Below, in pieces: positions 21,190 through 39,325 of a stretch of DNA of 53,676 nucleotides (position 1 is its first letter; each line of letters opens with the position of its first letter). The stretch lies in the NCBI GenBank assembly GCA_044342535.1, contig JBIIPQ010000001.1:1-53676 (forward strand), given 5' to 3'. The DNA comes from Burkholderiaceae bacterium (GTDB taxonomy: Bacteria > Pseudomonadota > Gammaproteobacteria > Burkholderiales > Burkholderiaceae_E). Under the pieces are notes generated by a model. The model ran no database searches. It was not told the DNA's origin and was given only the letters and a program-made list of their open reading frames with translations. A program made the position numbers and the translations under genes.

Positions 21190-21465
21190 GGGCGAGTCCC
21201 GTCGATCGACGAGTGTGGGTGACGGTCCGTGACACGAGTGGGCATCGGTGGCTCTGCCGGAATCGGGTATTGATATCGGCCCCGTTGTACGGTCTCGGCG
21301 GACGCCATGGCGTCCCAAGCAGGCAAGAGGCTCGCCAATTCGGGTAAGTCCGACCCCCCGCCCACCGCCGATTCCCGCTCGACGGTCGCTTCGATCTCAC
21401 TCGCCGCGACAGGGCCGCCGCACCGCCCCTCTACAATCGCGCATGCCTTCGCCCGCCTGCCGACC

Positions 21466-24400: not shown

Positions 24401-25686
24401 GCGGCGTGATGACCGCGCCCGAGGCCGCGCAGGCGCTGCTCTCGCGCCGCGGCAGCACCGAGCGCGACGAGTCGATCCGGATGCGGCTGGCGAACGGTGT
24501 GGTCCGTGCCTGCGTGGAGTCGGAGGCCGCACGCGGCGTGCAGCGCTTCTCGGGCTTCGACGACGGTCGGCTGGCGCTGCTCGCCGCATCGGTCGAGGCG
24601 GCCGACCATGCGCGCCGCCTCGGCATCGAGGCCGATGCGATCGCAGCCGCCGACCCGTTGCAGTCGCCCGCCCGCGCCCAGGAGCTGCTGGAGGCGGTGA
24701 GCCGGCCCGAGGGCGTGGCGGCGCTGCCGGCCACGCGGCTGATGCGGCTGGCGGTCGCGGCGTCGGGCCGTGCCGCGCTGTCCAGCAGACTTGAGATCTA
24801 TCCGCGCGCCATGTCCGCGCTGCAAGCGCTTCGCCATTCGCTCGGTGCGCTGGCCGGCGTGCGGCGGCTCACCGCGGCCCAGGTGATCGAGCGTGTGCGA
24901 GGTCGTTACCCTCAGGCCGAGCCGCTGCCCGATCGGCCCGCGCTCGACGCGCTGATGCACGCGGCAGGTGCCGACCTTCACTGGCGCGAGGACGATGGCG
25001 ACGGGCCGGCCTATCACCCGGCCGGCGCGCAGGTCGGAGCCTCCGTCGGGCGCAGCACGCTGCTCTCGCGCCTGCCCACGCGCAGCGTGCTCGCCGGAGA
25101 CGCCGACAGCGAGCCGCTGCTCGTGGCGCGTCGATTCGAGGAGCGGCTCGCGCACTCGGTGTGGCAGGGCGGCTTCCTCGCGCTGACCGTGCCGCCGCGC
25201 GAGGCGCGTGCGGCGCAAGGCGAACTGCTGCGCCGCTTCGACCTGCAGCGCACGAGCCTGGACGCGTTGCTGCTGCGCGCGCTGCGCGAGCGGGCCGACG
25301 CGCGGCGCGTCGACTGGACGGTCGTGCTGCGCGCAGACAGCGCCGCGCCCGGCAGCGTCGACCACAGCCGCCTGCTGCAACTCGCGCGCCAGGCCGGCCA
25401 GCTCGCCATCGAGCGGCTGCTCGCATCGCCGCGGCCGCTCCTCCTGACCGATCCCGGCCTGCTCGGCCGCTGGCAGCTTACCGACCTGATCGATCCGCTG
25501 CGTGACGGCGCCGGCCGGCCCGGCGCGCTGCCGCGGTGCTGGCTGCTCGTGCCTATGGTGGCCAACGCGCTGCCGTCCATCGACGGCGTGCCGGTGCCCG
25601 TGCTCGGTGCCTCCCAGTGGGCGCGCATCCCGGCTGCCTGGATCGCCAACCGTCACCGGGCCGGTGCGCCCGTTCCGCAGGCCTGA
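21466..25686 (+). CDS. pglW: PglW: NERD-domain / tandem protein-kinase-domain BREX type 2 protein
   Basis: NERD-like N-terminus (EVDALILAPTGLYLVEIKSRPG). First kinase-like domain carries HRALCPQN (22486-22509). Second domain carries VLKVAI, HRDIKPDN (23389-23412), DFS and TPPYLDPF. A long C-terminal region follows. The start is ATG 21466 or 21472. Confidence 0.85.
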   Translation: MVMTPPRWQAIAESAFPWERDALEWLRSLLPDRDPWHAWANFEFIDDQGKVNEVDALILAPTGLYLVEIKSRPGRVDGDAHSWTWTTDGRLITEDNPLLLANRKSKRLMSVLRRQPSVQKARVRLPWCEPLIFLSATSLDCRLGGSARAGVYLRGKPGALGDPGIVAALLGDARAAADPPLSPVDGAQHRAMLQGMTQAGVRQSNKHRRVNDWQLGALIGEGERWQDWEGRHATLEKTRRRIRIYPHSAAASPEERAAMSKAAEREFQLLEGIEHPGILRIREFTSSERGPALIFDHDPDALRLDHLLRERGAKLSVDLRLHIVRSLAEAVKHAHGRRLFHRALCPQNVLVSDADTAQPTLRIMNWQTGARDAETGGTDLRTLGTVHPGEYVENPGLVYLAPELLKPDTPPGPHLDVFSLAAIAYHVFSGQPPAGTPLELWNRLVEQGGLKVSDVMDGAPPSLQDLIQYGTAPDIQARYPTVAEFLAELDTVEEELTRPDPAQTVDPSRATVGDRLDGGFVVVRRLGRGSCADVLLVRVADDARTAEQPTRERVLKVAIDASHDDRVVAEGAVLASLHHANVVEVTETLRIAGRSALLMHYAGESLARRLREGPRLSLDLVRRFGDELIGVVDHLEQQGVAHRDIKPDNIGLTQVGERGRLQLVLFDFSLSRTPVDAITAGTPPYLDPFLPLRKPARWDLQAERFALAVTLYELAIGVTGGSTPRWGDGRSAPYAIEDEVTLDPERFDPALRDGLAAFFGRALRRDPRERFDNAEEMRRAWNRVFDDATLQPAPADAFDALARDVAADTRVGELGYGVEALNVLDGMGIATVADLLAVDRIRFRYLKGVGDRIRKEIRLKARRLAQLRPDLTRGRPTLHDDDEGVSSGPASIDELAAQLVPRRPAGDDHPEDTALATWLGIDEGDAAAPWPTPGDAARAGGIARPIFADTLARARERWLKSSALVTVRDELMALLAAHGGVMTAPEAAQALLSRRGSTERDESIRMRLANGVVRACVESEAARGVQRFSGFDDGRLALLAASVEAADHARRLGIEADAIAAADPLQSPARAQELLEAVSRPEGVAALPATRLMRLAVAASGRAALSSRLEIYPRAMSALQALRHSLGALAGVRRLTAAQVIERVRGRYPQAEPLPDRPALDALMHAAGADLHWREDDGDGPAYHPAGAQVGASVGRSTLLSRLPTRSVLAGDADSEPLLVARRFEERLAHSVWQGGFLALTVPPREARAAQGELLRRFDLQRTSLDALLLRALRERADARRVDWTVVLRADSAAPGSVDHSRLLQLARQAGQLAIERLLASPRPLLLTDPGLLGRWQLTDLIDPLRDGAGRPGALPRCWLLVPMVANALPSIDGVPVPVLGASQWARIPAAWIANRHRAGAPVPQA

Positions 25687-25690
25687 CCCG

Positions 25691-28600
25691 ATGATCGATT
25701 CCCGCCGCCTGCTCGCCGACCTGCAGGGCTGGATCCGCCGGCTCGAGCCGGACCTGCGCGAGCGTGTCGCGGCCGATGCGGCGCTCGATGTCGCGTTGTG
25801 CGCCGAGTGGGACGACGCGCGCGCAGCCGGGCGCACCGGCGACACCTTCGAGACGTGGGTCGACGCCGTGCTCACGCAGGCGGCCGTGCACTGGCTGCTC
25901 GGCTGCGTGTTCGTGCGCTTCATCGAGGACAACGGGCTGGTCGAGCGGCCGTGGCTTTCCGGGCCCGGCGAGCGCCACGCGCTTGCGCAGGATCGTCACG
26001 AACGTTACTTCCGTGAGCATCCGGTGCTGTCCGACCGCGACTACCTGCTCGCCTGCTTCACGGACGTCGCCGCGCTGCCCGGGCTGCAGGCACTGTTCGA
26101 TTCGGCGCACAACCCGGTCTTCCGGCTCGGCATCTCGGGCGATGCCGCGATGGCGCTGCTCGCGTTCTGGCGCCGCGTCGACCCCGACACCGGCACGCTG
26201 GTGCACGACTTCACCGACCCGACCTGGGGCACTCGCTTCCTCGGCGACCTGTACCAGGACCTGTCCGAGTCCACCCGCAAGCGCTATGCGCTGCTGCAGA
26301 CGCCGGACTTCATCGAGTCCTTCATTCTCGACCGAACCCTCGCGCCGGCGATCGCCGAGTTCGGCTACCGCGAGGTCCGGCTGATCGACCCCACCTGCGG
26401 GTCCGGTCACTTCCTGCTCGGCGCGTTCGCGCGGCTGCTCGACCTCTGGTCGCGCAACGAGCCGGCCCGCCCGCGCCGCGACCTCGTGCAGCGCGCGCTC
26501 GACGGAGTGTTCGGCGTCGACCTGAACCCATTCGCGGTCGCGATCGCGCGCTTCCGGCTGCTGGTGGAGGCGCTACGCGCCAGCGGCGTCGAGCGGCTGG
26601 CCGCAGCGCCCGACTTCGAGCTGCACCTCGCGGTGGGTGACAGCCTGCTGCACGGCCAGCGCGCCGGCATGAAGGACACTGCGTCGCTGCTCGACGAGCC
26701 GCAGGCCTATGCCGGCACCGGGCTCGAGCATGCGTATGCGGTGGAGGACCTCGACGAGGTCAGGCGGATCCTCGGGCAGCGGTATCACGCGGTGGTGGGG
26801 AACCCGCCGTACATCGTGGTGAGGGATTCGGCGCTGAATGCGGCGTATCGAAGCCGCTTCGAGAGCTGCCACATGAAGTACTCGCTCGGAGTGCCGTTCA
26901 CGGAACTGTTCTTCGACCTGGCGCTGCCGGGCGACGAGGGGCCCGCCGGGCATGTTGGATTGATCACCGCGAACTCGTTCATGAAGCGCGAGTTCGGGTC
27001 GAAGCTGATCGAGAAGGTGCTGCCGAGCCTGGACCTCACGCATGTGATCGACACGTCGGGCGCCTATATTCCGGGGCACGGTACGCCGACGGTGATTCTA
27101 TTCGGGCGCAACCGGCTGCCGGCCGGTGACTCGGTTCGGACGGCCATGGGGATTAAAGGTGAGCCGGGGTCGCCGGAGGATCCGGCTCAGGGGCTTGTAT
27201 GGTGCGCAATTGTTACTCAGATAGACCGAACAGGGAGCGAGAGCGAATTCGTTAGTGTTGCTGACACGAAGCGGACAACGTTTGCTAAGCATCCATGGAG
27301 CATCGGCGGTGGCGGCGCGGTCGATTTGAAGGAAGCGGTTGAAGAGGGGCGGCCTCTCCTAAAGTCTGAAATAGCTGGTGCAGGATTCTCAGCAATTACG
27401 GGCGAAGACGAAGTCTTTGCAATGCCTCGGGGGTTGGTTGGTCGGTTGGGAATCAATTCGAGGCTTTTCGTGTTGGGTGACGAGGTTAGGGATTGGGCAA
27501 TCTCGCCGTCTGCGGCGGTAATTTTTCCATACGAGTCCGAAAACCTTTCTGCGCAACCGCCTGCGACAACTTCCGTGGCAGCGCGACACTTCTGGAGCAT
27601 GAGAACTAATCTGCGTAGTCGATTGATGTTCGGAAAATCTCCTGAGCAGGCTGGACTCAATTGGTGGGAAATGAGTTTTCTTTCTCGAGAGCGACTTCGA
27701 TCCCCTTTCTTAGTGACCTTCGCCGAAGTCGCTACCCACAACCACTTCGTCCTCGACCGCGGCGGCAAGGTCTTTAAGCAGACCGCGCCGGTAATCAAGC
27801 TGCCGGCGGGCGCGGACGAGGCGACGCATCTCGGGCTGCTGGGGCTGCTGAACTCTTCGGTGGGGTGTTTCTGGTTGAAGCAGGTGTGTCACAACAAAGG
27901 GGAAGGTGGTGGTACGCGTGTAGACGCCGGATTTTCGGCTTTGGGAGATGAAGCGTGGAAAAGTCATTTCGCATTTAATTCGACCAAAGTGGCGGAGTTC
28001 CCTCTTGCATCTGGTCGGCCCTACACGCTTGTTGCAATGCTTGATTCCGCATCGCATGAACTGCGCTCGTACTGCGAATCCCCCTTCGCCCCCGGCTTCG
28101 CCCCCGGCTACGCCCCCGATCGTCCGCGCCTCCTCGCCGCCGCTCGCCAGCACGCCGACACCCTCGCCCGGATGATCGCGCTCCAGGAAGAACTCGACTG
28201 GCAGTGCTACCGCCTCTACGGACTGCTCAACGCACCGCTCGAAGCCTCCGACCCCGACACCCTCCCGCCGCTGCGCCTGGGCGAGCGCGCGTTCGAGATC
28301 GTGCTCGCCCGCCGCATCGCCGCAGGTGACGAGACCACCTCCTGGTTCGAGCGCCACGGCTCGACGCCGATCACCGAGCTGCCCGCGCACTGGCCGCCCG
28401 ACTATCGCGCGCTCGTTGAGCGACGCATCGCCTGCATCGAGTCCGACCGCAACATCGGCCTTGTCGAGCGTCCCGAGCACAAGCGCCGCTGGAACCTGGA
28501 CCCCTTCGACGAGACCGTGCAGCGCGGCCTGCGGTTGTGGCTGCTCGATCGCCTGGAGTCCGAGCCCTACCGGCGCGGCGCGCCGCAGCTCACCACCGTC

Positions 28601-29332
28601 TCGCGGCTGGCCGACATCGCCCGGATGGATGCTGGGTTCATGCAGGTCGGCGAGCTCTACGCCGGTCATGCCGACTTCGACCCGGTCGCGCTCGTCGACG
28701 AGCTGGTCGCTTCGGAATCCGTCCCCTTCCTGCCGGTGCTGCGCTACGCCGAGTCCGGCCTGCGCAAGCGCGCGCAGTGGGAGGCCACCTGGGCGCTGCA
28801 GCGTCGTGAGGACCTGATCGATGCCTTCGAGTCCGACGCGCGCCGCCGCAAGGAGCGCAAGGACGAGGAGATCGGCGACATCCCGGTGCCGCCCAAGTAC
28901 CAGTCCAAGGACTTCCTGAAGACCGACTTCTGGCGCCTGCGCGGCGGGCTCGACGTGCCGAAGGAACGCTGGATCAGCTACCCCGGCTGCGAGTCCGGGG
29001 CCGACGCGAGCCGCGTGGTCGGCTGGGCGGGCTGGACCGCGCTGCAGCAGGCGCAGGCGCTGGCCGCCTGGTACCTCGACGCCCGCGAGCGCGAAGGCTG
29101 GCCCGTCGAGCGGCTGGTGCCGCTGCTGGCCGGGCTGCGCGAGCTGCTGCCCTGGCTGCTGCAATGGCACAACGCGATCGATCCTGAGTTCGGCCTGCGG
29201 CAGGGCGACTACTTCGTGTCCTTCGTGCAGGACGAGGCCCGGGCGCTGGGGACCACGGTCGATGCGCTCGCGGCCTGGCAGCCGCCGGCGCGCAGCGTGC
29301 GTCGCGGGCGGACCCGTGCGGCGGCGAAGTAG
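25691..29332 (+). CDS. pglX: PglX: BREX N6-adenine DNA methyltransferase / specificity subunit
   Basis: 1213 aa. SAM motif I IDPTCGSGHFLLGAF and catalytic motif IV VVGNPPYI (NPPY at 26801-26812). Positioned after pglW. Confidence 0.9.
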   Translation: MIDSRRLLADLQGWIRRLEPDLRERVAADAALDVALCAEWDDARAAGRTGDTFETWVDAVLTQAAVHWLLGCVFVRFIEDNGLVERPWLSGPGERHALAQDRHERYFREHPVLSDRDYLLACFTDVAALPGLQALFDSAHNPVFRLGISGDAAMALLAFWRRVDPDTGTLVHDFTDPTWGTRFLGDLYQDLSESTRKRYALLQTPDFIESFILDRTLAPAIAEFGYREVRLIDPTCGSGHFLLGAFARLLDLWSRNEPARPRRDLVQRALDGVFGVDLNPFAVAIARFRLLVEALRASGVERLAAAPDFELHLAVGDSLLHGQRAGMKDTASLLDEPQAYAGTGLEHAYAVEDLDEVRRILGQRYHAVVGNPPYIVVRDSALNAAYRSRFESCHMKYSLGVPFTELFFDLALPGDEGPAGHVGLITANSFMKREFGSKLIEKVLPSLDLTHVIDTSGAYIPGHGTPTVILFGRNRLPAGDSVRTAMGIKGEPGSPEDPAQGLVWCAIVTQIDRTGSESEFVSVADTKRTTFAKHPWSIGGGGAVDLKEAVEEGRPLLKSEIAGAGFSAITGEDEVFAMPRGLVGRLGINSRLFVLGDEVRDWAISPSAAVIFPYESENLSAQPPATTSVAARHFWSMRTNLRSRLMFGKSPEQAGLNWWEMSFLSRERLRSPFLVTFAEVATHNHFVLDRGGKVFKQTAPVIKLPAGADEATHLGLLGLLNSSVGCFWLKQVCHNKGEGGGTRVDAGFSALGDEAWKSHFAFNSTKVAEFPLASGRPYTLVAMLDSASHELRSYCESPFAPGFAPGYAPDRPRLLAAARQHADTLARMIALQEELDWQCYRLYGLLNAPLEASDPDTLPPLRLGERAFEIVLARRIAAGDETTSWFERHGSTPITELPAHWPPDYRALVERRIACIESDRNIGLVERPEHKRRWNLDPFDETVQRGLRLWLLDRLESEPYRRGAPQLTTVSRLADIARMDAGFMQVGELYAGHADFDPVALVDELVASESVPFLPVLRYAESGLRKRAQWEATWALQRREDLIDAFESDARRRKERKDEEIGDIPVPPKYQSKDFLKTDFWRLRGGLDVPKERWISYPGCESGADASRVVGWAGWTALQQAQALAAWYLDAREREGWPVERLVPLLAGLRELLPWLLQWHNAIDPEFGLRQGDYFVSFVQDEARALGTTVDALAAWQPPARSVRRGRTRAAAK
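28085..28120 (+). repeat. In-frame 12-bp tandem repeat x3 within pglX (FAPG FAPG YAPD)
   Basis: ttcgcccccggc ttcgcccccggc tacgcccccgat, lying exactly at the right edge of the low-GC block of pglX. Confidence 0.8.
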
Positions 29333-29404
29333 ATGGCGGCGCTGGCATCGGATGTCGCTCTGACGCCAGTCAGCGCCGCGACGTGTTAAAAAACGGCCCG
29401 ATTC

Positions 29405-29432
29405 TGAACATGTCCGGGCAGACGTGTACAAA
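29405..29432 (+). promoter_or_regulatory. Weak sigma70-like promoter candidate ahead of the nested cassette
   Basis: TGAACA, 16-nt spacer, TACAAA, within the AT-richer 128-nt spacer after pglX. Each hexamer matches consensus at only 4 of 6 positions. Confidence 0.2.
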
Positions 29433-29460
29433 GCGCTAACAAGTGGCGAGCTCCAGCCCC

Positions 29461-29907
29461 ATGACTCCCGTCTATGACGTCGATTACCACGCCAGCGCTA
29501 TCCGGCATCTCCGGGACGCGGAGTACCTGCACGCTGGGGGGTTTGCCCCGAACGCAGGGCAGCTCTACGGCTTCTGCGTTGAATGTGCTCTGAAGGCGGT
29601 TCTTGTGTCCTGCGGAGTCGCTCGGGACGCTTCCGGTAGCGTGACCCAAGGGAGTCGCTTCAAGGTGCACATGCCGAAGCTGGTCGACCAGATCACCGCC
29701 GACGTTCCTTTCGGCCCTGAAGGACGCCTTGCCGCAGGCTACGTTGCTCAGTTTCCAGAGATTGCAGACATGGACGATTGGAGCATCGATCATCGCTATT
29801 TCAAGGAGGCCGCATTGCCGGTGGCATCCATCGACCGCTGGCGTGTGGTGGCGACGCGGGTTCGTGGCCTGCTCGATACGCTGAAGCTGGACGGGGGTAT
29901 CGAATGA
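29461..29907 (+). CDS. Cassette gene A: small all-alpha protein, HEPN-like (tentative)
   Basis: ATG at 29461 (an alternative GTG is at 29443). AIRHLRDAEYLHAGGFAPNAGQLYGFCVECALKAVL resembles the first helical hairpin of classical HEPN domains (A.dL..A..ll..g....a..l..qa.E.aLKA.l). RDAEYLH fits Rx5H, and SIDHRY gives an HxY. The stop overlaps the start of gene B (ATGA). Confidence 0.45.
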   Translation: MTPVYDVDYHASAIRHLRDAEYLHAGGFAPNAGQLYGFCVECALKAVLVSCGVARDASGSVTQGSRFKVHMPKLVDQITADVPFGPEGRLAAGYVAQFPEIADMDDWSIDHRYFKEAALPVASIDRWRVVATRVRGLLDTLKLDGGIE

Positions 29908-31250
29908 AGCAAGTGCTGTTCGAAGATGCACTGCGGATTGCCATCGAGGCGGCATCCCAGCTCAGGTCGTCAGGTGGCCATGATGTTCGTCTGGTCAGGG
30001 ACATGGTGGGGCGGATTCGCTTCGTCTTGAATCTGCATCGCGACCGCATTTTTCCGGGTGACATTGCGTCCTTAGTCGATGCGACGAAAGTGCTCGGTCC
30101 CTATGCCGCGTCGCAGGCGGTACTGACGCGCGATGACTTTGCCGATGCCGACGCCGTATTCGCCGACCCCTCGTGGCATGCCACCTTCACGATTGCCAAA
30201 GGGGCAGATGGAGCGGTGACTTCGACCGTGCCGGTCATGGACCGACAGGTCACCGGGCAGGACTGGCTGCGTGGACATCTGCCTGCCGGAGAATCCAGGC
30301 GCGCCCACCGCGTCGTCTTCCACGGGCTCAAGGGAGGCGTGGGCCGCTCGACGAGCCTCGCGATGGTGGCTTACGGGCTGGCAAGAAGGAGCCGGCGGGT
30401 GCTGGTCGTCGACTTCGACCTGGAGTCCCCCGGTCTCTCGTCGCTTCTGCTCCCGGCCGAGCGGATGGCTTCGGTCGGGCTGGTCGACTGGTTCGTCGAA
30501 GATGCGGTAGGTCAAGGAGACGCGATCATCGATGACATGGTCTCGACGAGTCCGCTCGCCGATACGACGATCGGAGAAATCCGGGTAGCGGCCGCAGCCG
30601 GTCGCGACGATGCCGCCTACCTCGACAAGCTGTCGAGAGTGTATGGCGACCTGCCGGGACCGGCCGGTCCGCGGCGCTGCGCCGACCGCATGCTGGACAT
30701 CGTGGAGAAGCTCGAGGCGTCGGTGCGCCCCGATCTCATCCTGATCGACAGCCGCGCGGGGCTTCACGACCTCGCCGCCGCTGCCATCGTGAGGCTTGCG
30801 GATACCGCGTTGCTGTTCAGCACGGGAGGTGCGCAGAGTCAGGTCGGCTATCGCCAATTGTTCACGCACTGGCAGCGCAGGCCCGACGTGGCGCGTGAAG
30901 TCAGGGAGCGGCTCGCGATGGTGCGGGCGTTGCTGCCTGCAACGCAGCGGGAACGGATGGTCACGGCTTTCCGGCAGGACGCATACGAACTGTTTGCCGA
31001 AACCCTCTACGACGAATTGCCAGCCTGCGTGATGGGTGAAGAAACCGACGCTCCGGCAGGTTTCCATCCATCTCTCCAGGACGAAGCCGCGCCGCATTGG
31101 CCGATCCTCGTCGACTGGGACGAACGCTTTCAAGAGTTCGATCCTCGCGTCATGGTCTCTGGCGGAGGTATCGGCGACACCTTTGTCGACGCGACCTTCG
31201 GGGCCTTGATCGACTGGGTCGATACACGGACGCGGGGGGCGATGACATGA
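29904..31250 (+). CDS. Cassette gene B: ParA/MinD-class (SIMIBI) ATPase with KGGVGR variant Walker A and an unknown N-terminal domain of about 135 aa
   Basis: VVFHGLKGGVGRSTS (KGGVGRST at 30330-30353), VLVVDFDLESPG and LILIDSRAGLHD (MinD-like DxxxG switch II, 30735-30770). ATGA overlaps at both ends. Confidence 0.7.
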   Translation: MKQVLFEDALRIAIEAASQLRSSGGHDVRLVRDMVGRIRFVLNLHRDRIFPGDIASLVDATKVLGPYAASQAVLTRDDFADADAVFADPSWHATFTIAKGADGAVTSTVPVMDRQVTGQDWLRGHLPAGESRRAHRVVFHGLKGGVGRSTSLAMVAYGLARRSRRVLVVDFDLESPGLSSLLLPAERMASVGLVDWFVEDAVGQGDAIIDDMVSTSPLADTTIGEIRVAAAAGRDDAAYLDKLSRVYGDLPGPAGPRRCADRMLDIVEKLEASVRPDLILIDSRAGLHDLAAAAIVRLADTALLFSTGGAQSQVGYRQLFTHWQRRPDVAREVRERLAMVRALLPATQRERMVTAFRQDAYELFAETLYDELPACVMGEETDAPAGFHPSLQDEAAPHWPILVDWDERFQEFDPRVMVSGGGIGDTFVDATFGALIDWVDTRTRGAMT

Positions 31251-32707
31251 ACCCGTCCGCCATTCGGCAAGGCCTGCGGGCAGTGACCCGAGAGCAGGAT
31301 CAGGCCAGCGGGACCGCCTCGTCGGCGCCTGCCCAGATATACGTTCCGCCCAGCCACGCGCGCGCGCTCGATCCGAACGCGACGATCGTCGAAGGTATCC
31401 GGGGGGCAGGCAAGAGTTTCTGGTGTGCGCAACTCGCGTCGAGCGCGCACTTCGACTTCGTCGTGAATGCCTTCCCGGAAGCGAACCTCGGACCGAAGAT
31501 CAAGATGGTACGTGGATTCGGTCTCTGGCCGGGCGAGGCGCCAAGTCCGAGGGTCCTGGCGAGTCTGGTATCGAAGTTTCCGGCAGATTCCATATGGCGT
31601 GCCGTGTTGGCCGTGAACGCAGGCTTCCCAGGAGCGTTCGCACAGCTGACGCAGTGGCAGGAGCGGGTGCAATGGGTTCACTCGAATCCTGAGCAGTTCG
31701 ATGTGCTGCTCGACGAGGCCGATCGTGGCTTGTTCGAGCGTGGCGAGACGCTCGTGGTGCTGTTCGACGCGCTCGACCGGCTTGCCTCGGAGTGGGCGGG
31801 GGTGGTGCCGTTGGCGCGATCGCTGCTGCAGATTGCGCTGGAGGTCCGCGGCACGCGGCGAATTCGCTTCAAGGTGTTCGTGCGCCCCGACATGCTGGAG
31901 AACGCCGGCATCGTGAGCTTTCCCGATTTTTCCAAGCTGGTTGCGGGCAAGGCTTCACTTGAATGGCGAAGGGCCGACCTGTACGCGCTGCTCTACCAGG
32001 CCTTGGCCAATGCATGTGCCGCCCCTGGAGTGGATGACGCCGGAGGTGCGTTCAGGAGCGCAGTCGAAGCCGTTACGACCCTAAAGACCGAGCGGCGTGC
32101 GCAGGCTTGGACGCTGCCGAGCCGGTTGCGAACCGACGAGCGCCTGCAGGAGCGACTCTTCGAGAGCATGGCGGGTCCGGCAATGGGTGCCAACACGAAG
32201 CGGGGCAAGCCGTACTCCTGGCTCGTCAACCACTTGCTCGACGGGTTGAATCAGGTCAGTCCGCGAAGTTTCTTCGCTGCACTCCACGAAGCGGCGACCG
32301 GCACCGACGAGGTCTTCCCGCTGCCGCTCGACTACCGCGCCATCCAGGTCGGCGTACAGAAGGCGTCGCGTATCCGGGTCGCGGAGATGGAGGAAGACTA
32401 CGCGTGGGTCAAGACCGTGATGGAGCCGCTGCGCACGGCAATCACGGTACCGTGCGTCGTCCAGGATTTCGATCGGATCTGGAAGGAGGTTGATGTGTTC
32501 ACGCGTGTGCAAGGCAGGCCTGAAGGAAGCGATTTCGAAGGGACGCTTCCACCCTTCGGACTGTCTCGCAAGACGGCAGGCCTGCTGGACGATCTGGAGA
32601 AGATCGGCCTGATCCACAGGCTGAAGGATGGGCGCGTCCAGATGCCCGATGTCTATCGCATCGCATTCGGACTCGGGCGCCGCGGGGGCGTCAAGCCGCT
32701 CCAATGA
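31247..32707 (+). CDS. Cassette gene C: P-loop NTPase (STAND/AAA-like) with C-terminal winged-helix-like tail
   Basis: Walker A GIRGAGKS (31394-31417), Walker B LVVLFDALD (31751-31777), and C-terminal LLDDLEKIGLIHRLKDGRVQMPDVYRIAFGL. The start overlaps the stop of gene B. Confidence 0.6.
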   Translation: MNPSAIRQGLRAVTREQDQASGTASSAPAQIYVPPSHARALDPNATIVEGIRGAGKSFWCAQLASSAHFDFVVNAFPEANLGPKIKMVRGFGLWPGEAPSPRVLASLVSKFPADSIWRAVLAVNAGFPGAFAQLTQWQERVQWVHSNPEQFDVLLDEADRGLFERGETLVVLFDALDRLASEWAGVVPLARSLLQIALEVRGTRRIRFKVFVRPDMLENAGIVSFPDFSKLVAGKASLEWRRADLYALLYQALANACAAPGVDDAGGAFRSAVEAVTTLKTERRAQAWTLPSRLRTDERLQERLFESMAGPAMGANTKRGKPYSWLVNHLLDGLNQVSPRSFFAALHEAATGTDEVFPLPLDYRAIQVGVQKASRIRVAEMEEDYAWVKTVMEPLRTAITVPCVVQDFDRIWKEVDVFTRVQGRPEGSDFEGTLPPFGLSRKTAGLLDDLEKIGLIHRLKDGRVQMPDVYRIAFGLGRRGGVKPLQ

Positions 32708-32765
32708 ACCGCTTTACATCCCGTCCGGGCGGATCTGCCCGTGCAGTCGAACCGAGCGCCGCACG

Positions 32766-35700
32766 ATGACCCTGATCCGCGACCTGATCGACATCCCCGA
32801 GCGCGTCCACCAGGGCGACTTCGTCCTCAAGCTCTCCGAAGGGGTCGGCAACGCCGAGCGCACGCTCGCCGACTACGTGGTCACGCCGCAGCTCGTGCGC
32901 TGCTTCGAGGACGCGCTGGCCTTCGTGCGGCAGGCGGTCGAGGGGCGCAGCAGTCGGGCCGCCTACCTGCACGGCTCGTTCGGCTCGGGCAAGAGCCACT
33001 TCATGGCGGTGCTGAACCTGCTGCTGGCCGGCCATCCGGCGGCCCGCTCGCGCGCCGAGCTGGCGGACGTGGTGGCGCGCGGCAACGCCTGGACGCAGGA
33101 CCGGCGCTTCCTGCTGGTGCCCTACCACATGATCGGCGCGCGCGACATGGAGTCGGCCATCCTTGGGCAGTACGCCGAGGCGGTCCGCCGCCTGCACCCC
33201 GATGCGCCGGTGCCCGGCTTCTACCGTGCCGAGGGCCTGTTCGAGGACGCGAAGCGGCTGCGCGCGCAGATCGGCGACGAGCGCTTCTTCGCCGGCCTGA
33301 ACGACGGCGCGGCCGGCGCCGCCGACGACGGCTGGGGCGACCTGGGCGCGGGCTGGCAGGCGGACGCCTTCGAGGGCGCGATGCTCGAGCCGCCGGGCGG
33401 CGACGAGCGCGCACGCCTGGTCGGCGCACTGATCGGCACGTACTTCAGCGCCTACACGCAGGTCGCCGACGGCCGCGGCGAGTCCTTCGTCAACCTGGAT
33501 GACGGGCTGTCGATCCTGTCGCGCCATGCGAAGTCCCTCGGCTACGACGCGGTCATCCTGTTCCTCGACGAGCTGATCCTGTGGCTGGCGAGCCGCGCCG
33601 CCGACATGAGCTTCGTCGCCAGCGAAGGCACCAAGCTGGTCAAGCTGGTCGAGGCGGGCAACGCCGACCGGCCGATCCCGCTGGTGAGCTTCGTGGCCCG
33701 GCAGCGCGACCTGCGCGAGCTGGTCGGCGAGAACCTCGCGGGCTCGCTGCAGCTGCAGTTCGCCGACGTGCTGCGGCACTGGGAGGCGCGCTTCCACGTC
33801 ATCACGCTCGAAGACCGCAACCTGCCGGCGATCATCGAGAAGCGCGTGCTGCGCCCGCGCAGCGAAGCCGCACGCCAGGAGCTGGCCGCCGCGTTCGAGG
33901 AGTTCCAGGGCACGCGGCGCGAGGTGCTCGAGACGCTGCTGACCACGCAGGGCGACCGGGAGATGTTCCGCAAGGTCTACCCGTTCAGCCCGGCGCTGGT
34001 GACGACGCTGATCGCGGTGTCCTCGGCGCTGCAGCGCGAGCGCACGGCGCTCAAGCTGATGCTGCAGCTGCTGGTCGACCGGCGCGACGATCTCGCGCTC
34101 GGCCAGGTGATTCCGGTCGGTGACCTCTGGGACGTGATCGCCGACGGCGACGAGCCCTTCTCGGACGCGATGCGGATCCACTTCGACAACGCGCGCAGGC
34201 TGTATGCACAGAAGCTGCTGCCGCTGCTCGAGCGCCATCACGGCACGAGCTGGGACGACATCGGCCTGGGGCTGGCCGACCCGGCCAAGGCGGGTGCGCT
34301 GCGCAACGACGCACGGCTGGTCAAGACGCTGCTGCTGGCCGCGCTGGTGCCCGAGGTGGAGTCGCTCAAGGCGCTGACCGCGTCGCGCCTCACCTCGCTC
34401 AACCACGGCAGTTTCCGCTCGCCGATCCCGGGGCGCGAGGTGCAGACGGTGCTGAACCGCTGCCGTGCCTGGGCGGCCGAGGTCGGCGAGATCAAGATCG
34501 GCGACCAGGCGGTGAACCCGCTGATCTCGATCCAGGTCACTGGCGTGGACATCGAGCCGATCATCCGCGACGCGGAGTCGGTGGACAACCCGGGCAACCG
34601 GCGCCGCAAGATCCGCGAGCTGCTGCTCGCCGAGCTGGGCGTGGTCGACGAGTCCGCGCTGTTCACGCTGCATCCGTATTCGTGGCGGCACACCCGCCGC
34701 GAGGTAGAGGTGGTGTACGAGAACGTGCGCGAGATGAGCGACGAGCGCCTGCGGGGACGAGAGGACGGCTGGACGATCGTCGTCGACATCCCCTTCGACG
34801 ACGGCCGCTTCACGCCGATGGACGACCTTGCTCGCCTTGCGCGCTACCGCGGCATGCCGACCCGGACCCTGGTCTGGCTGCCGTCCTTCCTGTCCGAGCG
34901 CGCGTTGCGCGACCTCGGCCGTCTGGTGGTGCTCGACCACCTGCTCGCGGGTGCCGGCGAGCGCTTCGCCGAGCACGCCTCGCACTTGGCGGCGGTCGAC
35001 CGCGGGCCCGCGCTCGCGCTCGCTCGCAACCAGCGCGACCAGCTGCGCCAGCGGATGCTGCAGTACCTGCTGGCCGCCTACGGCGTGGCCGACGACTCGG
35101 CCGAGGGCATCGCCGAGCGGCTCGAGCCGCAGGACCAGTTCCGCTCGCTCGACACCACGCTCAAGCCGCGCCCGCCGGTGGGCGCGAGCCTGAAGGATGC
35201 CTTCGAGTCGCTACTCGACCAGCTCTTCGCCCACCAGTACCCCGGGCATCCACGCTTCGACGTCGAGATCAGGCCGGTGGTGCTCAAGCGGGTCTGGCAG
35301 GAGATCGAGCTCGCGCTGACCGATGCGGGCGGGCGCTCGCTGGTGGCCGAGAAGAGCGCACGCCAGACGGTGCGCTCGGTCGTCAATCCATTGAAGCTGG
35401 GCACGATGGGCGAGAACCACCTCGTGCTCGAGCCGCACTGGCGTTCGCATTTCCTGCAGATGCAGGCGCGCGACGGCGTGCCGATCACGGTCAGGCACTT
35501 GCGCGGCTGGATGAACGAGCCGCAGCCGATGGGGCTGCCCCCGGAGGTCGAGAACCTGGTGATCCTGACCTTCGCGGGCCAGACCAATCGCACGTTTTGG
35601 ATGAACGGCGGACCGGCCGTCGCGACCCTGGAGTCGATGCCCGACGCGATGGAGCTGCGCGAGCAGTCGCTGCCCCCGCGCGCCGAGTGGGATGAAGCCC

Positions 35701-36548
35701 TGCGGCGTGCCGGCGTGCTGTTCGGGCTTGCCCTGCCGCAGACGCTGAATGCGACCCACGTCGCGCGCGCGGTCGCTGCGTTGCGAGCCAAGGGCGTCGA
35801 GCTGAAGGACCCGGCCGCGAAGCTGGCGGCGACGCTCGCGCAGCGGCTCGCGGAGTGGGGGCAGGATCCCGAGGCCGCGCCGCGGCTGCGGACCGCGCGC
35901 TCGGCCGCGGCCCTGACGCAGGCGCTGGTGTCGGCATCCGACCGGGATCTGGTGTCGGCGTTCGCGGCGGCCGCGATCGCCACCGGCGAGGCGGCGCTCG
36001 GCACCGCGCTGACCAAGGCCGCCGTGCTCGAGGACACCTTGCGCAACGCTGCATTCGACGTGCTCGAGACAGCCTCGCGACTGATGGATCACCGGGCCGC
36101 GGCCGCGGCACGGCTGCACACCCGTGTAGCGGAGCTGCTCGCCGCCGACGAGCACGCGATCGGGCTGGCTGCGGCACTGGGGAGCGCCCGCAGCGATGCG
36201 CTGAAACTGCTCGCCGACCCGACACCCAAGGCGCCTGCCGGGCCGGTGGCGTCACCGCCTGCAGTTCCCGACTCGCCGTTGCAGGCGCCGGCGCCGGCGA
36301 TCGCGCCCTCGCCGACGTCCTCGTCGTCGCCCGTTTCCGTGGCGGTCATCGAACCCGCATCGCTCCCGCCCGTGGCCACGCCCGCGCCGACGTCTGCCTT
36401 GCCCGAAGCCTGGGTGCTGCAGGACGCAGCCGTCGACCTCGACCCCGCTGCGGCGCGGGCGCTGCTCGATCGGCTGGGCCGCGAGCTGGCTGACGACCCC
36501 GGCGCGCGGCTCACGGTCAACTGGCGGATCGTGAGGCGCAGCCGATGA
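32766..36548 (+). CDS. pglY: PglY: BREX type 2 large P-loop ATPase (BrxC-family)
   Basis: 1260 aa. N-terminus DIPERVHQGDFVLKLSEGV and Walker A GSFGSGKSH (32973-32996), with a Walker B candidate VILFLDEL. Positioned before pglZ, with an ATGA overlap. Confidence 0.85.
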   Translation: MTLIRDLIDIPERVHQGDFVLKLSEGVGNAERTLADYVVTPQLVRCFEDALAFVRQAVEGRSSRAAYLHGSFGSGKSHFMAVLNLLLAGHPAARSRAELADVVARGNAWTQDRRFLLVPYHMIGARDMESAILGQYAEAVRRLHPDAPVPGFYRAEGLFEDAKRLRAQIGDERFFAGLNDGAAGAADDGWGDLGAGWQADAFEGAMLEPPGGDERARLVGALIGTYFSAYTQVADGRGESFVNLDDGLSILSRHAKSLGYDAVILFLDELILWLASRAADMSFVASEGTKLVKLVEAGNADRPIPLVSFVARQRDLRELVGENLAGSLQLQFADVLRHWEARFHVITLEDRNLPAIIEKRVLRPRSEAARQELAAAFEEFQGTRREVLETLLTTQGDREMFRKVYPFSPALVTTLIAVSSALQRERTALKLMLQLLVDRRDDLALGQVIPVGDLWDVIADGDEPFSDAMRIHFDNARRLYAQKLLPLLERHHGTSWDDIGLGLADPAKAGALRNDARLVKTLLLAALVPEVESLKALTASRLTSLNHGSFRSPIPGREVQTVLNRCRAWAAEVGEIKIGDQAVNPLISIQVTGVDIEPIIRDAESVDNPGNRRRKIRELLLAELGVVDESALFTLHPYSWRHTRREVEVVYENVREMSDERLRGREDGWTIVVDIPFDDGRFTPMDDLARLARYRGMPTRTLVWLPSFLSERALRDLGRLVVLDHLLAGAGERFAEHASHLAAVDRGPALALARNQRDQLRQRMLQYLLAAYGVADDSAEGIAERLEPQDQFRSLDTTLKPRPPVGASLKDAFESLLDQLFAHQYPGHPRFDVEIRPVVLKRVWQEIELALTDAGGRSLVAEKSARQTVRSVVNPLKLGTMGENHLVLEPHWRSHFLQMQARDGVPITVRHLRGWMNEPQPMGLPPEVENLVILTFAGQTNRTFWMNGGPAVATLESMPDAMELREQSLPPRAEWDEALRRAGVLFGLALPQTLNATHVARAVAALRAKGVELKDPAAKLAATLAQRLAEWGQDPEAAPRLRTARSAAALTQALVSASDRDLVSAFAAAAIATGEAALGTALTKAAVLEDTLRNAAFDVLETASRLMDHRAAAAARLHTRVAELLAADEHAIGLAAALGSARSDALKLLADPTPKAPAGPVASPPAVPDSPLQAPAPAIAPSPTSSSSPVSVAVIEPASLPPVATPAPTSALPEAWVLQDAAVDLDPAAARALLDRLGRELADDPGARLTVNWRIVRRSR

Positions 36549-39325
36549 GCGTGCCGTCCCGGCAGCAGATCAGCGCGCAGCTCGAAGCGGTGCTTCAGCG
36601 CGACCGCGAGGCACGCTGCGTCGCGATCCGCTCGCCCTCGGCGGCCGCGTGGCCGCCGTCGCTCGCAGTGGGCTCGCATCGGTTCGACCTCGCCTGGTGC
36701 GAGTCCGCGCTCGCCGTGCGGCTGAAGCTGGCCGAGTTCGATGCGCGTCGCGACAGTAGCGCCGAAGGCGGCGGTGCAGCGTCGCCGGATGCCGGTCTCG
36801 TCGTGCTGACGCCGCTCGGCGAAGCCGAACTCGGCGACGACGTGATGGCCCGTGTGGCCCGGTCGCGCGTGTTCGCGGTCGAGCGCTGGGATACGGTGCG
36901 GCAGGTGTTCGGTGCGGTCGGCATCGATGCGCGATTGGCTCGGCTGGGGTGGGTGGCGGATGCCCTCGTGGAGCTGGCGCCCCCCGGCGGCTACGACCCC
37001 GTACCCAACGGCTTTCTGGACCTGTACACGGCGCGCCATCGCGTGCAGCAGGGCTTGCTGGGCCTCGACGATGCACGCCCGGACGCGGTGTCGCTGCTGC
37101 GCTGGACGGTGACGCCCGGCGCCCTGCAACGCTGGACCGCGCTCGGTGCGGGCATCCGTGACGACCTGGCGGCCTGGCTCGTCGAAGGCGTCGGTCCGGT
37201 CGGCCCGCGCCTGCTTCAGTGCATTGCGGCCGGTCACGGCGAGGACGCGATCGCGCTCGGAATCGTCTGCGGCGTCGTCTTCGCCGACACGGCTGGGCCG
37301 GCCCCGGAACTTGCCGCCGCCGCGGTGCGGCTCGAGCGCTTCGTCGGCGGGCAGCCGGTGTCGCGACTCGAGGGGCTCGACTGGGCCGGGGCCGCGAACC
37401 GCGCGCTGCCATTGCTCGACGCCGACCTCCAGCGCCGCGTGCTGGCCCGGGCCGACGCATTGACGGTATCGCTGCACCTGCAGGCGCACCAGGGCCTGAG
37501 CGATCTGCTGCCGGGGGGGTTCGAGGCGCGATTGGCTGCGTTCGCCGTGGCATTGTCGGCCTGGCTCGTCCACTGGCGGACCGCCCCCACGGCTGCCGGC
37601 CGGACCGACGCGCTCGCCGACGCGGCCGCGCGCGTGACCGAGGCCGCGCACTCGGTCGCGGCGCATCGACAGGCGGCCGTGCAGCATGCTCGAAGCGAGC
37701 GTGTCGCGATGGCGTCGAGGCTGGTGCGCTGGCTGCTGCAGGCGGGTCCACAGACGCCGCTCCCGGGCGTGGCCCTGCTTGCCTGCGCCAACGCGTATGC
37801 GATGGATGGAGCGTTCGCCGACTGGGCACGCCTGAAGCTGTTGGGGGGCGATGCCTCGACTGCACTGACGCAAGCGCAGGCAGCGCTCGTCGACGCCGTG
37901 AAGGCGCGACGCGAGGCCTTCAATGCGGATTTCGCGCGGGCCGTACAGGCCGAGGGCGTGCAGCCGATGGCGCCCGCCGGCACGCTGCTGCCGGTGGAGG
38001 CGGTTCTCGATACGGTGGTCGCGCCGCTCGCACGCCGCGTGCCGGTTCTCATGATCGTCGTCGATGGCCTGAGCCTGCCGATCTATCAGGAACTGGCGCG
38101 CGACCTCGAGCAACACGGATGGCAGGAGACCGTGCCGGTATCGGACGCCCGCGCGCCGGTCGCACTGGCCGCGCTGCCGACGGTCACCGAAGTGAGTCGC
38201 GCGAGCCTGCTGGCGGGGCGCCTCGCGAACGGAGCATCGTCGTTCGAGAAGGGGGCTTTTGCCTCGCATCCGGCGCTCCTCGCGGTCTCGCGGGCTCGGA
38301 CCAAGCCGGTGCTGTTCCACAAGGGTGAGCTCGGGGATGCGCTCGGCCTGGCGCCGCCGGTTCGTGCGGCGATCGCCGATCCCGCCCTGAACGTCGTGGG
38401 CGTGGTCTTCAACGCGGTGGACGACCAGCTGGGCGGTTCCGACCAGCTGCACCTGCGCTGGACCCTCGAAGACCTGCGACTGCTCGGTCCGCTGCTCCAC
38501 GAGGCCCGCAGCGCCTCGCGCGTGCTGGTGATCACTGCGGACCACGGTCATGTGCTCGATGATCGCAGCGCCGTGCGCGCCGGCTCGGACGGTGACCGGT
38601 GGCGTTCGCCGGCCGGTGCGGTGCAGCCTGACGAGGTCCAGCTCGGCGGCGCACGCGTCATCAGCCCGACCGGCGGCACGTCGGTGGTGTGCGCCTGGAG
38701 CGAGCGGCTGCGCTACGCGTCGAAGCGCAACGGCTATCACGGTGGGGTGTCGCCGCAGGAGGCGCTCGTGCCGCTCGGCGTGTTCGCTCCGGTGCACGTC
38801 GTAATCGAAGGCTGGAAGGCCGCGCCGCCACGAATGCCGGAATGGTGGGATGCGTCGGTCGTCGAAGCGCCGGCGCCGGTCGCGCCGATCCGTGTCGTCG
38901 AGCCTGCGCCGACAATCACACGGCGAAAGGCCGATACCCGTCAGCAGGGCCTGTTCGCGGAAGAGGGGCACGATGCTAGGCCCGATGGCACGCTGGAGGC
39001 AGGCCCGACGGGCGTCACCTGGATCGATGCCCTCCTGTCGAGCGAGACCTACCGGGCGCAACGTACGCTCGCCGCGCGGGTCGCGCCCCGAGACGAAGAC
39101 ATGCGCGCGTTGCTCGCCGCGCTCGAGGAACGGGGAGGCAAGTTGAATCGCACGGCACTCGCGCAGCGGCTCTCGATGCCGCTGCTGCGGGTCGGCGGAT
39201 TCGTCCATGCCGCTCGCCGCGTGCTGAATGTTGACCAGGCCGCAGTGCTCATGCTCGATGACGCGAGCGGGACCGTAACGCTCGATCGCAGGCTGCTCGA
39301 GCTGCAGTTCGAGGTGCGCTCATGA
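36545..39325 (+). CDS. pglZ: PglZ: alkaline-phosphatase-superfamily BREX protein
   Basis: 926 aa. PglZ/alkaline-phosphatase-like core VLMIVVDGLSLPIYQEL ... VLVITADHGH ... GYHGGVSPQE. Confidence 0.85.
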   Translation: MSVPSRQQISAQLEAVLQRDREARCVAIRSPSAAAWPPSLAVGSHRFDLAWCESALAVRLKLAEFDARRDSSAEGGGAASPDAGLVVLTPLGEAELGDDVMARVARSRVFAVERWDTVRQVFGAVGIDARLARLGWVADALVELAPPGGYDPVPNGFLDLYTARHRVQQGLLGLDDARPDAVSLLRWTVTPGALQRWTALGAGIRDDLAAWLVEGVGPVGPRLLQCIAAGHGEDAIALGIVCGVVFADTAGPAPELAAAAVRLERFVGGQPVSRLEGLDWAGAANRALPLLDADLQRRVLARADALTVSLHLQAHQGLSDLLPGGFEARLAAFAVALSAWLVHWRTAPTAAGRTDALADAAARVTEAAHSVAAHRQAAVQHARSERVAMASRLVRWLLQAGPQTPLPGVALLACANAYAMDGAFADWARLKLLGGDASTALTQAQAALVDAVKARREAFNADFARAVQAEGVQPMAPAGTLLPVEAVLDTVVAPLARRVPVLMIVVDGLSLPIYQELARDLEQHGWQETVPVSDARAPVALAALPTVTEVSRASLLAGRLANGASSFEKGAFASHPALLAVSRARTKPVLFHKGELGDALGLAPPVRAAIADPALNVVGVVFNAVDDQLGGSDQLHLRWTLEDLRLLGPLLHEARSASRVLVITADHGHVLDDRSAVRAGSDGDRWRSPAGAVQPDEVQLGGARVISPTGGTSVVCAWSERLRYASKRNGYHGGVSPQEALVPLGVFAPVHVVIEGWKAAPPRMPEWWDASVVEAPAPVAPIRVVEPAPTITRRKADTRQQGLFAEEGHDARPDGTLEAGPTGVTWIDALLSSETYRAQRTLAARVAPRDEDMRALLAALEERGGKLNRTALAQRLSMPLLRVGGFVHAARRVLNVDQAAVLMLDDASGTVTLDRRLLELQFEVRS

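Follow-up and report, generated by a model that had tools for sequence, protein, structure and literature searches.

We have examined a three-gene cassette that is embedded in the type 2 bacteriophage exclusion (BREX) locus of a Burkholderiaceae bacterium. The cassette lies between the BREX genes pglX and pglY in a stretch of 53,676 nt, hereafter called the window (GCA_044342535.1, contig JBIIPQ010000001.1, positions 1–53,676, forward strand), and its genes will be referred to as A, B and C. Judged by its protein profiles, it is an instance of the catalogued phage defence candidate PDC-M28 and not an undescribed system. We favour the view, at a probability of roughly 0.55, that the triad is an autonomous module in which nucleoside triphosphatases (NTPases) gate a HEPN effector, and that it rides in the BREX operon and provides immunity of the abortive-infection type.

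All three proteins match a PDC-M28 profile of PADLOC-DB v2 over almost its entire length: the gene A product matches PDC-M28A (PDLC04558) with an E-value of 1.2e-32 across profile positions 3–136 of 138, the gene B product PDC-M28B (PDLC04559) with 8.2e-132 across positions 1–432 of 438, and the gene C product PDC-M28C (PDLC04561) with 7.7e-158 across positions 7–479 of 480. No other defence family in this database was matched by A, B or C. The PDC systems comprise 145 phage defence candidates that were derived from genes lying within BREX, DISARM and type I restriction-modification (R-M) loci (Payne et al., bioRxiv 10.1101/2024.01.29.577857). Table S8 of the same study lists the three families in order as cassette CAS_00115, with a count of 121 beside it and the remark 'Assign as candidate PDC-M28' (bioRxiv 10.1101/2024.01.29.577857). 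The window cassette thus has the same three families in the same order, with full-length matches, and nothing sets it apart from the family. The first-pass annotation, a reading of the DNA without database searches, had followed the same logic of embedding in BREX and had called the triad a candidate undescribed module that it could match to no named system. That label has to be withdrawn: what had been rediscovered is a catalogued, uncharacterised candidate, whose published record consists of a candidate listing and hidden Markov models, with no domain analysis, mechanism or experiment that we could find. The triad is also not a core component of type 2 BREX, since it occurs without BREX in 25 assessable loci and on plasmids; a survey of 1309 type 2 BREX taxa describes six components and not the triad (NAR 2026).

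How well is the triad conserved as a unit? A scan with a profile of C, restricted to one genome per species, yielded 80 loci from at least six phyla, in which A and B were sought by profile searches of six-frame open reading frames (ORFs). All 80 contain C, 77 contain B and 72 contain A, without exception in the order A-B-C and on one strand. The full triad is present in 67 of the 70 genome loci that have room upstream of C, and the arrangement is therefore far beyond chance; its range extends over Beta- and Gammaproteobacteria, Acidobacteriota, Myxococcota, Desulfobacterota, Spirochaetota and Actinomycetes, so that the cassette proposed at first pass as one unit is indeed conserved as one across phyla. 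The 4-nt overlap between A and B that is seen in the window recurs, at exactly this length, in 41 of 61 loci. Compared with a close relative (L081), A has a ratio of nonsynonymous to synonymous substitution of 0.165, B one of 0.155 and C one of 0.111, values close to that of PglZ, and by this measure the triad genes are under purifying selection. We also considered that an alternative effector might replace A in locus L020; the upstream gene there encodes an IcmF-type methylmalonyl-CoA mutase, and A is simply missing.

Further evidence for a functional unit comes from metagenomes. Scanning them for the DNA pattern of KGGVGR[ST]T, the P-loop motif of B, returned 120 stretches, 118 of which encode a B-like protein, and the motif is therefore almost private to the triad; these 118 loci nearly always have A upstream and C downstream. 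In 13 of the 118, a single polypeptide of about 885–923 aa unites B and C, with B at the N terminus and C at the C terminus (L086, 7,060–9,741, 893 aa; L087, 1,170–3,824; L091, L125, L127, L133, L141, L152, L156, L162–L164 and L199). A divergent A-like gene lies upstream of each fusion, and the contigs are mostly metagenomic ones of low G+C content. The fusions argue that B and C work together physically and act as one unit, and they constitute the strongest available evidence for this.

Gene B (29,904–31,250, 448 aa; like all features of the window described here, on the plus strand) had been described as a ParA/MinD-class ATPase with an extra N-terminal domain, and this description stands. 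Its MinD/ParA-class (SIMIBI) NTPase domain (30,294–31,250) passes the NCBIfam model NF047398, the KGGVGR-motif variant AAA ATPase, with 181.1 bits against a cutoff of 90 over residues 134–324, whereas the N-terminal part is unmatched. Matches to PDB profiles are confined to the P-loop region of ParA, MinD, ArsA and NifH, and with B, the scores of all ParA, MinD and RepA equivalog models fall far short of their cutoffs. The P-loop, KGGVGRST (30,330–30,353), does not conform to the canonical deviant Walker A motif KGGxGK[ST] with its P-loop lysine: it always reads KGGVGR[ST]T, and the arginine in place of the lysine, R148, is invariant in 44 homologues. Further on, the domain contains the motifs DxDLExPG (30,411–30,434) and DSRAG (30,741–30,761), and the switch I DxD (D170, D172) as well as the Walker B aspartate (D282) are invariant. 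An alignment of homologues delimits the N-terminal domain to approximately residues 1–130 (29,904–30,293), with F6, R32 and G36 (RDxxGR) and W121 as invariant positions. None of the paper texts searched mentions the KGGVGR ATPase.

Gene C (31,247–32,707, 486 aa) was predicted at first pass to be a P-loop NTPase with a winged-helix-like tail, in agreement with its AlphaFold2 model, its structural matches and its weak family matches. The model (mean predicted local distance difference test, pLDDT, 86.6) comprises an AAA+ core, a helical lid and a winged-helix-like tail at about residues 437–475. In a Foldseek search, Cdc6 (1fnn, 2.6e-5) was followed by BrxC (9zdx, 6e-5), ORC2 (1w5s, 8.7e-5) and Orc1/Cdc6 (2qby, 1.2e-4), all with probability 1.0, and RdrA and TnsC were also among the closest structures; TM-scores were only 0.3–0.46, as expected for multi-domain models. 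Both nucleotide-binding motifs are intact, namely Walker A, GIRGAGKS (31,394–31,417), and a NACHT-like Walker B, LFDALDR (31,760–31,780), and G50, G53, G55 and K56 of the former and D174 and D177 of the latter are invariant. Among 38 homologues, sub-threshold Pfam matches point to AAA_16 in 19, NACHT in 15 and KAP in 4, the NCBIfam Sll1717 family is reached with 61 bits, below its cutoff of 75, and a sequence-profile search of the PDB returned nothing. On the strength of the model, C is best described as an ORC/Cdc6- or STAND-like AAA+ ATPase with a winged-helix tail. We also considered C as a duplicated BREX ATPase and rejected this, because hhalign comparison with BrxD and with the PglY N terminus aligns only about 20 residues around the P-loop.

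Gene A (29,461–29,907, 148 aa) begins with an ATG at 29,461, and an alternative in-frame GTG start lies upstream at 29,443. A sequence-profile search of the PDB returned nothing for its product, and a fold search was needed. The AlphaFold2 model is all-alpha (pLDDT 92.6), with the four-helix up-down arrangement of HEPN domains, and its first eight Foldseek matches in the PDB are individual chains from six HEPN-domain entries (1wol, 1ufb, 1o3u, 2q00, 4nqf and 2hsb), with probabilities up to 1.0 and target-normalised TM-scores of 0.45–0.64 at weak E-values of 0.035–1. Pfam agrees in direction, with all scores below the gathering score: HEPN_AbiV is matched at 0.25–0.29 by the window protein and by 15 of 40 diverse homologues (best 0.0032), and HEPN (PF05168) by 7 of the 40 (best 0.0013). 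The model and these weak signals thus bear out the earlier suggestion of a HEPN-like protein and indicate a HEPN fold that is closest to AbiV. R15, H16, D19, E41, K45, H70, W107, R112 and Y113 are invariant, of which the most divergent homologues keep only ECxLK, the H70 equivalent and (W)RY; the R18-x5-H24 arrangement of the window protein is not conserved. H70, usually accompanied by a basic residue at position -2, falls in the segment that corresponds to the inter-helix catalytic segment of AbiV, and by this analogy the H70 segment may be the active site of A. The A family forms 1424 clusters at 50% identity, nearly all of them solo small proteins. One metagenomic protein of 425 aa (P0316), the sole representative of its kind, carries an N-terminal Fic domain (motif HPFRDGNGRTARF) and a complete C-terminal A-type HEPN domain; the two may be genuinely fused or may have been merged in gene calling.

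In which genomic surroundings is the triad found? Inside type 2 BREX lie 28 of the 80 loci, 26 of them with the triad in the pglX–pglY slot. Two Streptomyces loci (L072, L075) have it between pglW and pglX, with about 2.4 kb separating triad and pglX. Eight BREX loci (L007, L011, L021, L023, L027, L031, L051 and L059) hold extra cargo of 1.8–5.6 kb between gene C and pglY, and in L027 (11,421–13,390) this cargo is the two-gene candidate PDC-M25, made up of the ABC-type ATPase M25A (2.9e-139) and M25B (5.1e-81). The pglX–pglY junction of proteobacterial type 2 loci behaves as a recurrent cargo slot that stacks candidates, PDC-M28 alone or together with PDC-M25.

The triad also accompanies other methylation-based systems. 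A PLD-helicase gene directly follows C in three gammaproteobacterial loci (L065, L068 and L069), two of which have a DUF1156 methyltransferase upstream of the triad, the contig of L068 beginning at the triad. The surroundings in L065 (5,195–14,141), L068 and L069 (4,668–13,358) represent a BREX-related, DUF499/Hma-like system; in L065 the triad begins one base after the methyltransferase gene, whereas L069 lacks gene A and has B immediately behind the methylase gene. The metagenomic sample contains eight more DUF1156/PLD-helicase contexts, including L110, L130, L140 and L159. A type III mod-res pair lies immediately beside the triad in L025 and L047. A short ORF just 5' of gene A in L025 (7,857–8,081) resembles a fragment of the downstream type III Mod (phmmer, 1.2e-30), which hints that this cassette was inserted into or beside a mod gene. 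In total, the triad resides inside defence operons in 33 of the 58 loci whose flanks could be judged, a strong association with defence loci; the other 25, each with 4 kb or more of sequence to either side, show none of these systems. Almost no recurrent neighbours emerged from clustering of the non-BREX loci.

On a neighbour-joining tree of C, BREX-embedded and non-embedded states switch at least seven times, and the proteobacterial clade of the window is for the most part BREX-embedded. C homologues occur on 23 plasmids. One of these, the conjugative IncFIB/IncFII plasmid NZ_CP063442.1 of Enterobacter asburiae, bears a stand-alone triad (L084; 78,224–81,560; proteins of 181, 438 and 492 aa); its neighbours are genes for a tyrosine recombinase and for a TIR-domain protein, as well as a toxin-antitoxin pair of the GNAT/DUF1778 type. 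From its phylogeny and contexts, the distribution of the cassette is patchy and horizontally transferred.

In the window itself, the type 2 BREX locus is complete and in canonical order, PglW-PglX-PglY/BrxC-PglZ-BrxD-BrxHI, each identified by PADLOC models at near full length (E = 0 to 6e-204). PglW (21,307–25,686) is followed by the methyltransferase gene pglX (approximately 25,691–29,332; PglX model E = 0, full length), whose TAG stop at 29,330–29,332 marks the upstream border of the cassette. Downstream are the ATPase gene pglY/brxC (32,766–36,548, with its ATG at 32,766; BrxC-PglY model E = 0), PglZ (36,545–39,325), BrxD (39,322–40,686) and BrxHI (40,655–42,754), and the island is flanked by housekeeping genes for an aspartate-semialdehyde dehydrogenase, a 2-hydroxyacid dehydrogenase and an ABC transporter. 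Genes A, B and C lie adjacent on the same strand and are joined by ATGA stop/start overlaps at 29,904–29,907 and 31,247–31,250; the boundaries given at first pass for the three ORFs, between the pglX stop at 29,332 and the pglY start at 32,766, are exact, and the ATGA coupling is present as claimed. The drop in composition noticed by hand proved equally sound: G+C content is 0.61, 0.64 and 0.64 in A, B and C versus 0.70–0.73 in the BREX genes, and at third codon positions it is 0.69, 0.74 and 0.77 versus 0.84–0.93. The cassette is compositionally foreign to the BREX genes with which it is co-oriented, as had been proposed. A second anomaly is located in the middle of pglX (27,100–28,200), where G+C content falls to 0.56–0.62 and its third-position value to 0.68. 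PglX residues 480–840, approximately, are 38–78% identical to those of the close relative L081, whereas identity elsewhere is mostly 93–100%, dropping to 87–90% in two bins and to 85% in the final, short one. This looks like a swapped target-recognition domain, which would mean an altered BREX specificity.

How might the cassette be expressed? A 128-nt spacer (29,333–29,460) separates pglX from gene A, and 58 nt (32,708–32,765) separate gene C from pglY. The hexamers TGAACA-N16-TACAAA, which the first-pass annotation had read as a weak promoter, do exist at 29,405–29,432; the promoter reading itself is not supported, as a consensus scan of 28,800–33,200 detected no sigma-70-like site. Where both genes are on the contig, the start of A lies within 25 nt of the pglX stop in 20 of 22 loci of the pglX–pglY slot, and in nine BREX-embedded loci it overlaps the stop by exactly 4 nt. 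The spacer, conserved only in close metagenomic relatives (L081–L083), is therefore a peculiarity of this lineage, and the position of A at or across the pglX stop in most related loci points to expression of the cassette from the BREX operon. By the same evidence, and because the scan lends no support, a separate promoter near 29,440 is unsupported, and we reject a promoter of its own as a general feature of the cassette. No terminator-like site was detected in either spacer. A G+C-rich hairpin does occur right after the pglX stop (29,336–29,379), followed by GUGUUAAAAAA with no U-run, and is not a canonical terminator. A structured RNA or riboswitch in the spacers was considered and rejected, as there is no Rfam match in them and the 128-nt spacer folds no better than shuffled sequence (z-score -0.93).

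We envision the triad as a horizontally mobile and self-contained module, for which the pglX–pglY junction would serve as a cargo slot and whose expression would be coupled to that of the BREX operon. B and C would form an obligate sensor or switch pair dependent on nucleoside triphosphates (NTPs), with C possibly binding nucleic acid via its winged helix, and A would be an AbiV-like HEPN effector under B–C control, most probably a putative metal-independent RNase or translation inhibitor. Release of A would then bring the infected cell to a stop, amounting to immunity of the abortive-infection or toxin type. The sequences show the gene order and its conservation, the B–C fusions, the folds, purifying selection on the genes and their recurrent insertion into defence loci based on methylation; the defence function, the RNA target of A, the sensing roles and the direction of control are inferred. 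Two sets of published predictions agree with this picture, one on HEPN plus ParA/Soj-like ATPase dyads as toxin-antitoxin modules (PMC3710099) and one on presumably inactive MinD/ParA-like domains that accompany STAND ATPases in conflict systems (PMC7159879). Independence from BREX is argued by the switches of context, by the DUF1156 and type III R-M settings, by the 23 plasmids and by the occurrence of PDC-M25 in the same slot.

Several observations weigh against this proposal. A has no canonical Rx4-6H motif, R112 being followed by Y-F-K-E-A-A-L and thus by no histidine, and distant homologues do not retain R15-H16; A could therefore be non-catalytic. The lysine-to-arginine change in the P-loop may abolish hydrolysis by B, which renders a role as switch uncertain, and the N-terminal 130 residues or so of B are without a sequence match in Pfam, NCBIfam or the PDB. 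Twenty-five of the 58 assessable loci are without a recognised defence system, and the immediate neighbours of many non-BREX loci are unrelated housekeeping genes, with R-M or helicase genes in a minority. No C homologue was found in the phage genome collection, so that no trigger can be suggested, and the DNA of the Enterobacter triad is without a match in E. coli genomes. Finally, we found in the paper texts searched neither a mention of PDC-M28 nor an experimental test of any member.

Could the triad instead serve BREX? PrrC, a HEPN-type anticodon nuclease that is encoded within a type I R-M locus and kept under ATPase control, illustrates how this might work: as an accessory or guard, the triad would monitor the integrity of PglX or BREX and fire its HEPN protein upon phage anti-restriction, following the logic of PrrC and EcoprrI, or it would regulate BREX. 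Position is suggestive in this respect. The junction used by 26 of the 28 embedded loci comes directly after the methyltransferase gene, A adjoins or overlaps pglX as closely as described above (nine 4-nt overlaps; 20 of 22 within 25 nt), the L065 triad starts one base behind a DUF1156 methyltransferase, those of L025 and L047 abut mod-res, and the clade of the window is mostly BREX-embedded. A dedicated partner of BREX would, however, hardly be expected to lack such a system within at least 4 kb in 25 of 58 assessable loci, to gain or lose the BREX context at least seven times on the C tree, to travel alone on plasmids, or to occupy a different junction, pglW–pglX, in Streptomyces; moreover, the slot also holds the unrelated PDC-M25, and C has no detectable paralogy with PglY or BrxD beyond the P-loop. 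We therefore consider a role of this kind unlikely. A guard of methylation-based immunity at large, whereby B–C would sense a neutralised PglX/BREX, DUF1156 methylase or type III Mod and unleash A on host RNA, appears rather improbable to us. If it were true, the triad would be a backup defence in the manner of PrrC, assembled from unrelated components, among them a naturally occurring MinD-type switch with an arginine P-loop.

As another possibility, A might be a toxin that is restrained by the ATPases B and C in an addiction cassette, which would stabilise its island or plasmid and be of no direct anti-phage benefit. For dyads of a HEPN protein and a ParA/Soj-like ATPase, a toxin-antitoxin function in which the ATPase acts as antitoxin has been put forward (PMC3710099). 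Toxin-antitoxin pairing is likewise how AbiV operates, the plasmid triad sits next to an integrase and the GNAT/DUF1778 pair, and the scattered chromosomal contexts with their housekeeping neighbours would fit as well. Yet known toxin-antitoxin pairs make do with less than three genes, about 1080 aa and two large NTPases, and the triad is strongly over-represented in defence operons (33 of 58 assessable loci). Toxin-antitoxin and abortive-infection roles are also not mutually exclusive. Pure addiction has, in our estimate, only a small chance of being the explanation. Smaller by far is the likelihood of a housekeeping module for DNA partition or positioning that hitch-hikes in the island, even though B is of the ParA/MinD class and the winged-helix tail and ORC-like fold of C suggest DNA binding. 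The P-loop lysine is invariably arginine, B misses the ParA, MinD and RepA equivalog cutoffs by far, and neither centromere-like nor other repeats were found in or beside the cassette, where only short matches at chance level occur. Translational coupling to pglX in many loci, a patchy and horizontally transferred distribution, a HEPN partner and B–C fusions are likewise foreign to par loci. A housekeeping assignment, raised at first pass as a way in which the defence reading could fail, was followed up for all three proteins, none of which falls into a characterised system of this sort.

If the autonomous, NTPase-gated module indeed works in defence, it would display a three-part architecture unseen in characterised systems, consisting of a non-canonical HEPN protein, a MinD/ParA NTPase with a lysine-to-arginine P-loop and a minimal STAND/ORC-like ATPase. 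Genomic embedding was the sole ground on which PDC-M28 and the other candidates, 145 in all, were nominated. The family was thus already catalogued, and what is new here are the counts of triad integrity, the survey of contexts and the B–C fusions. Handles for experiments are provided by the natural fusions, which lend themselves to structural work, by the short list of invariant residues and by the copy on the Enterobacter IncF plasmid, which suits work in enterobacterial hosts. In addition, the recurrent cargo slot between pglX and pglY bears on how BREX loci accumulate layered immunity.

How does the triad compare with known systems? The ORC/Cdc6-like ATPases of BREX itself, BrxC/PglY and BrxD, have their fold class in common with C, BrxC (9zdx) being its second-best structural match; profile-profile comparison reveals a shared P-loop only, and no PADLOC BrxC or BrxD model matches C. 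HEPN proteins paired with ParA/Soj-like ATPases were predicted to be toxin-antitoxin modules (Anantharaman et al. 2013, PMC3710099). In the MAE_18760 dyad of that study, a small HEPN gene lies beside a SIMIBI ATPase gene and is read as a nucleotide-controlled RNase toxin (PMC3710099); A and B are likewise adjacent. The MAE_18760 family possesses Rx4-6H, in contrast to A, which argues against A as a member of that family, and the triad adds a third, AAA+ component. MinD/ParA-like domains that are predicted to be inactive occur in NTP-dependent conflict systems, where they are also fused to STAND AP-ATPases (Kaur et al. 2020, PMC7159879). A non-canonical MinD/ParA-like site combined with a STAND ATPase, sometimes in one polypeptide, parallels the B–C pair and its fusions. 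Those systems are large and multi-domain, with vWA-MoxR or other cores, and belong to multicellular bacteria (PMC7159879), whereas the proteins of the triad are minimal and separate and have a HEPN partner.

For A, the nearest HEPN family by the sub-threshold Pfam signal is AbiV, an RNase that was experimentally shown to act on rRNA in Lactococcus abortive infection and whose catalytic arginine and histidine are located in a flexible inter-helix segment, Rx4-6H not being conserved across the AbiV family (bioRxiv 10.1101/2024.05.05.592566). Both proteins are small and all-alpha, and each has a conserved histidine in the segment between the core helices. They differ in control, which is exerted by an antitoxin RNA and not by ATPases in AbiV, and in size (201 aa for AbiV versus 148 aa for A). 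The precedents for embedding are PrrC, a single ABC-ATPase–HEPN fusion, together with RloC, and the GmrSD DNase BrxU. Neither PrrC/RloC nor BrxU has any sequence relation to A, B or C, and dependence on the host system is established for PrrC, unlike for the triad. BrxU is nested in the BREX locus of pEFER (discussed in bioRxiv 10.1101/2024.01.29.577857), and, like the triad as proposed here, PrrC/RloC and BrxU are independent effector modules housed in methylation-based defence operons.

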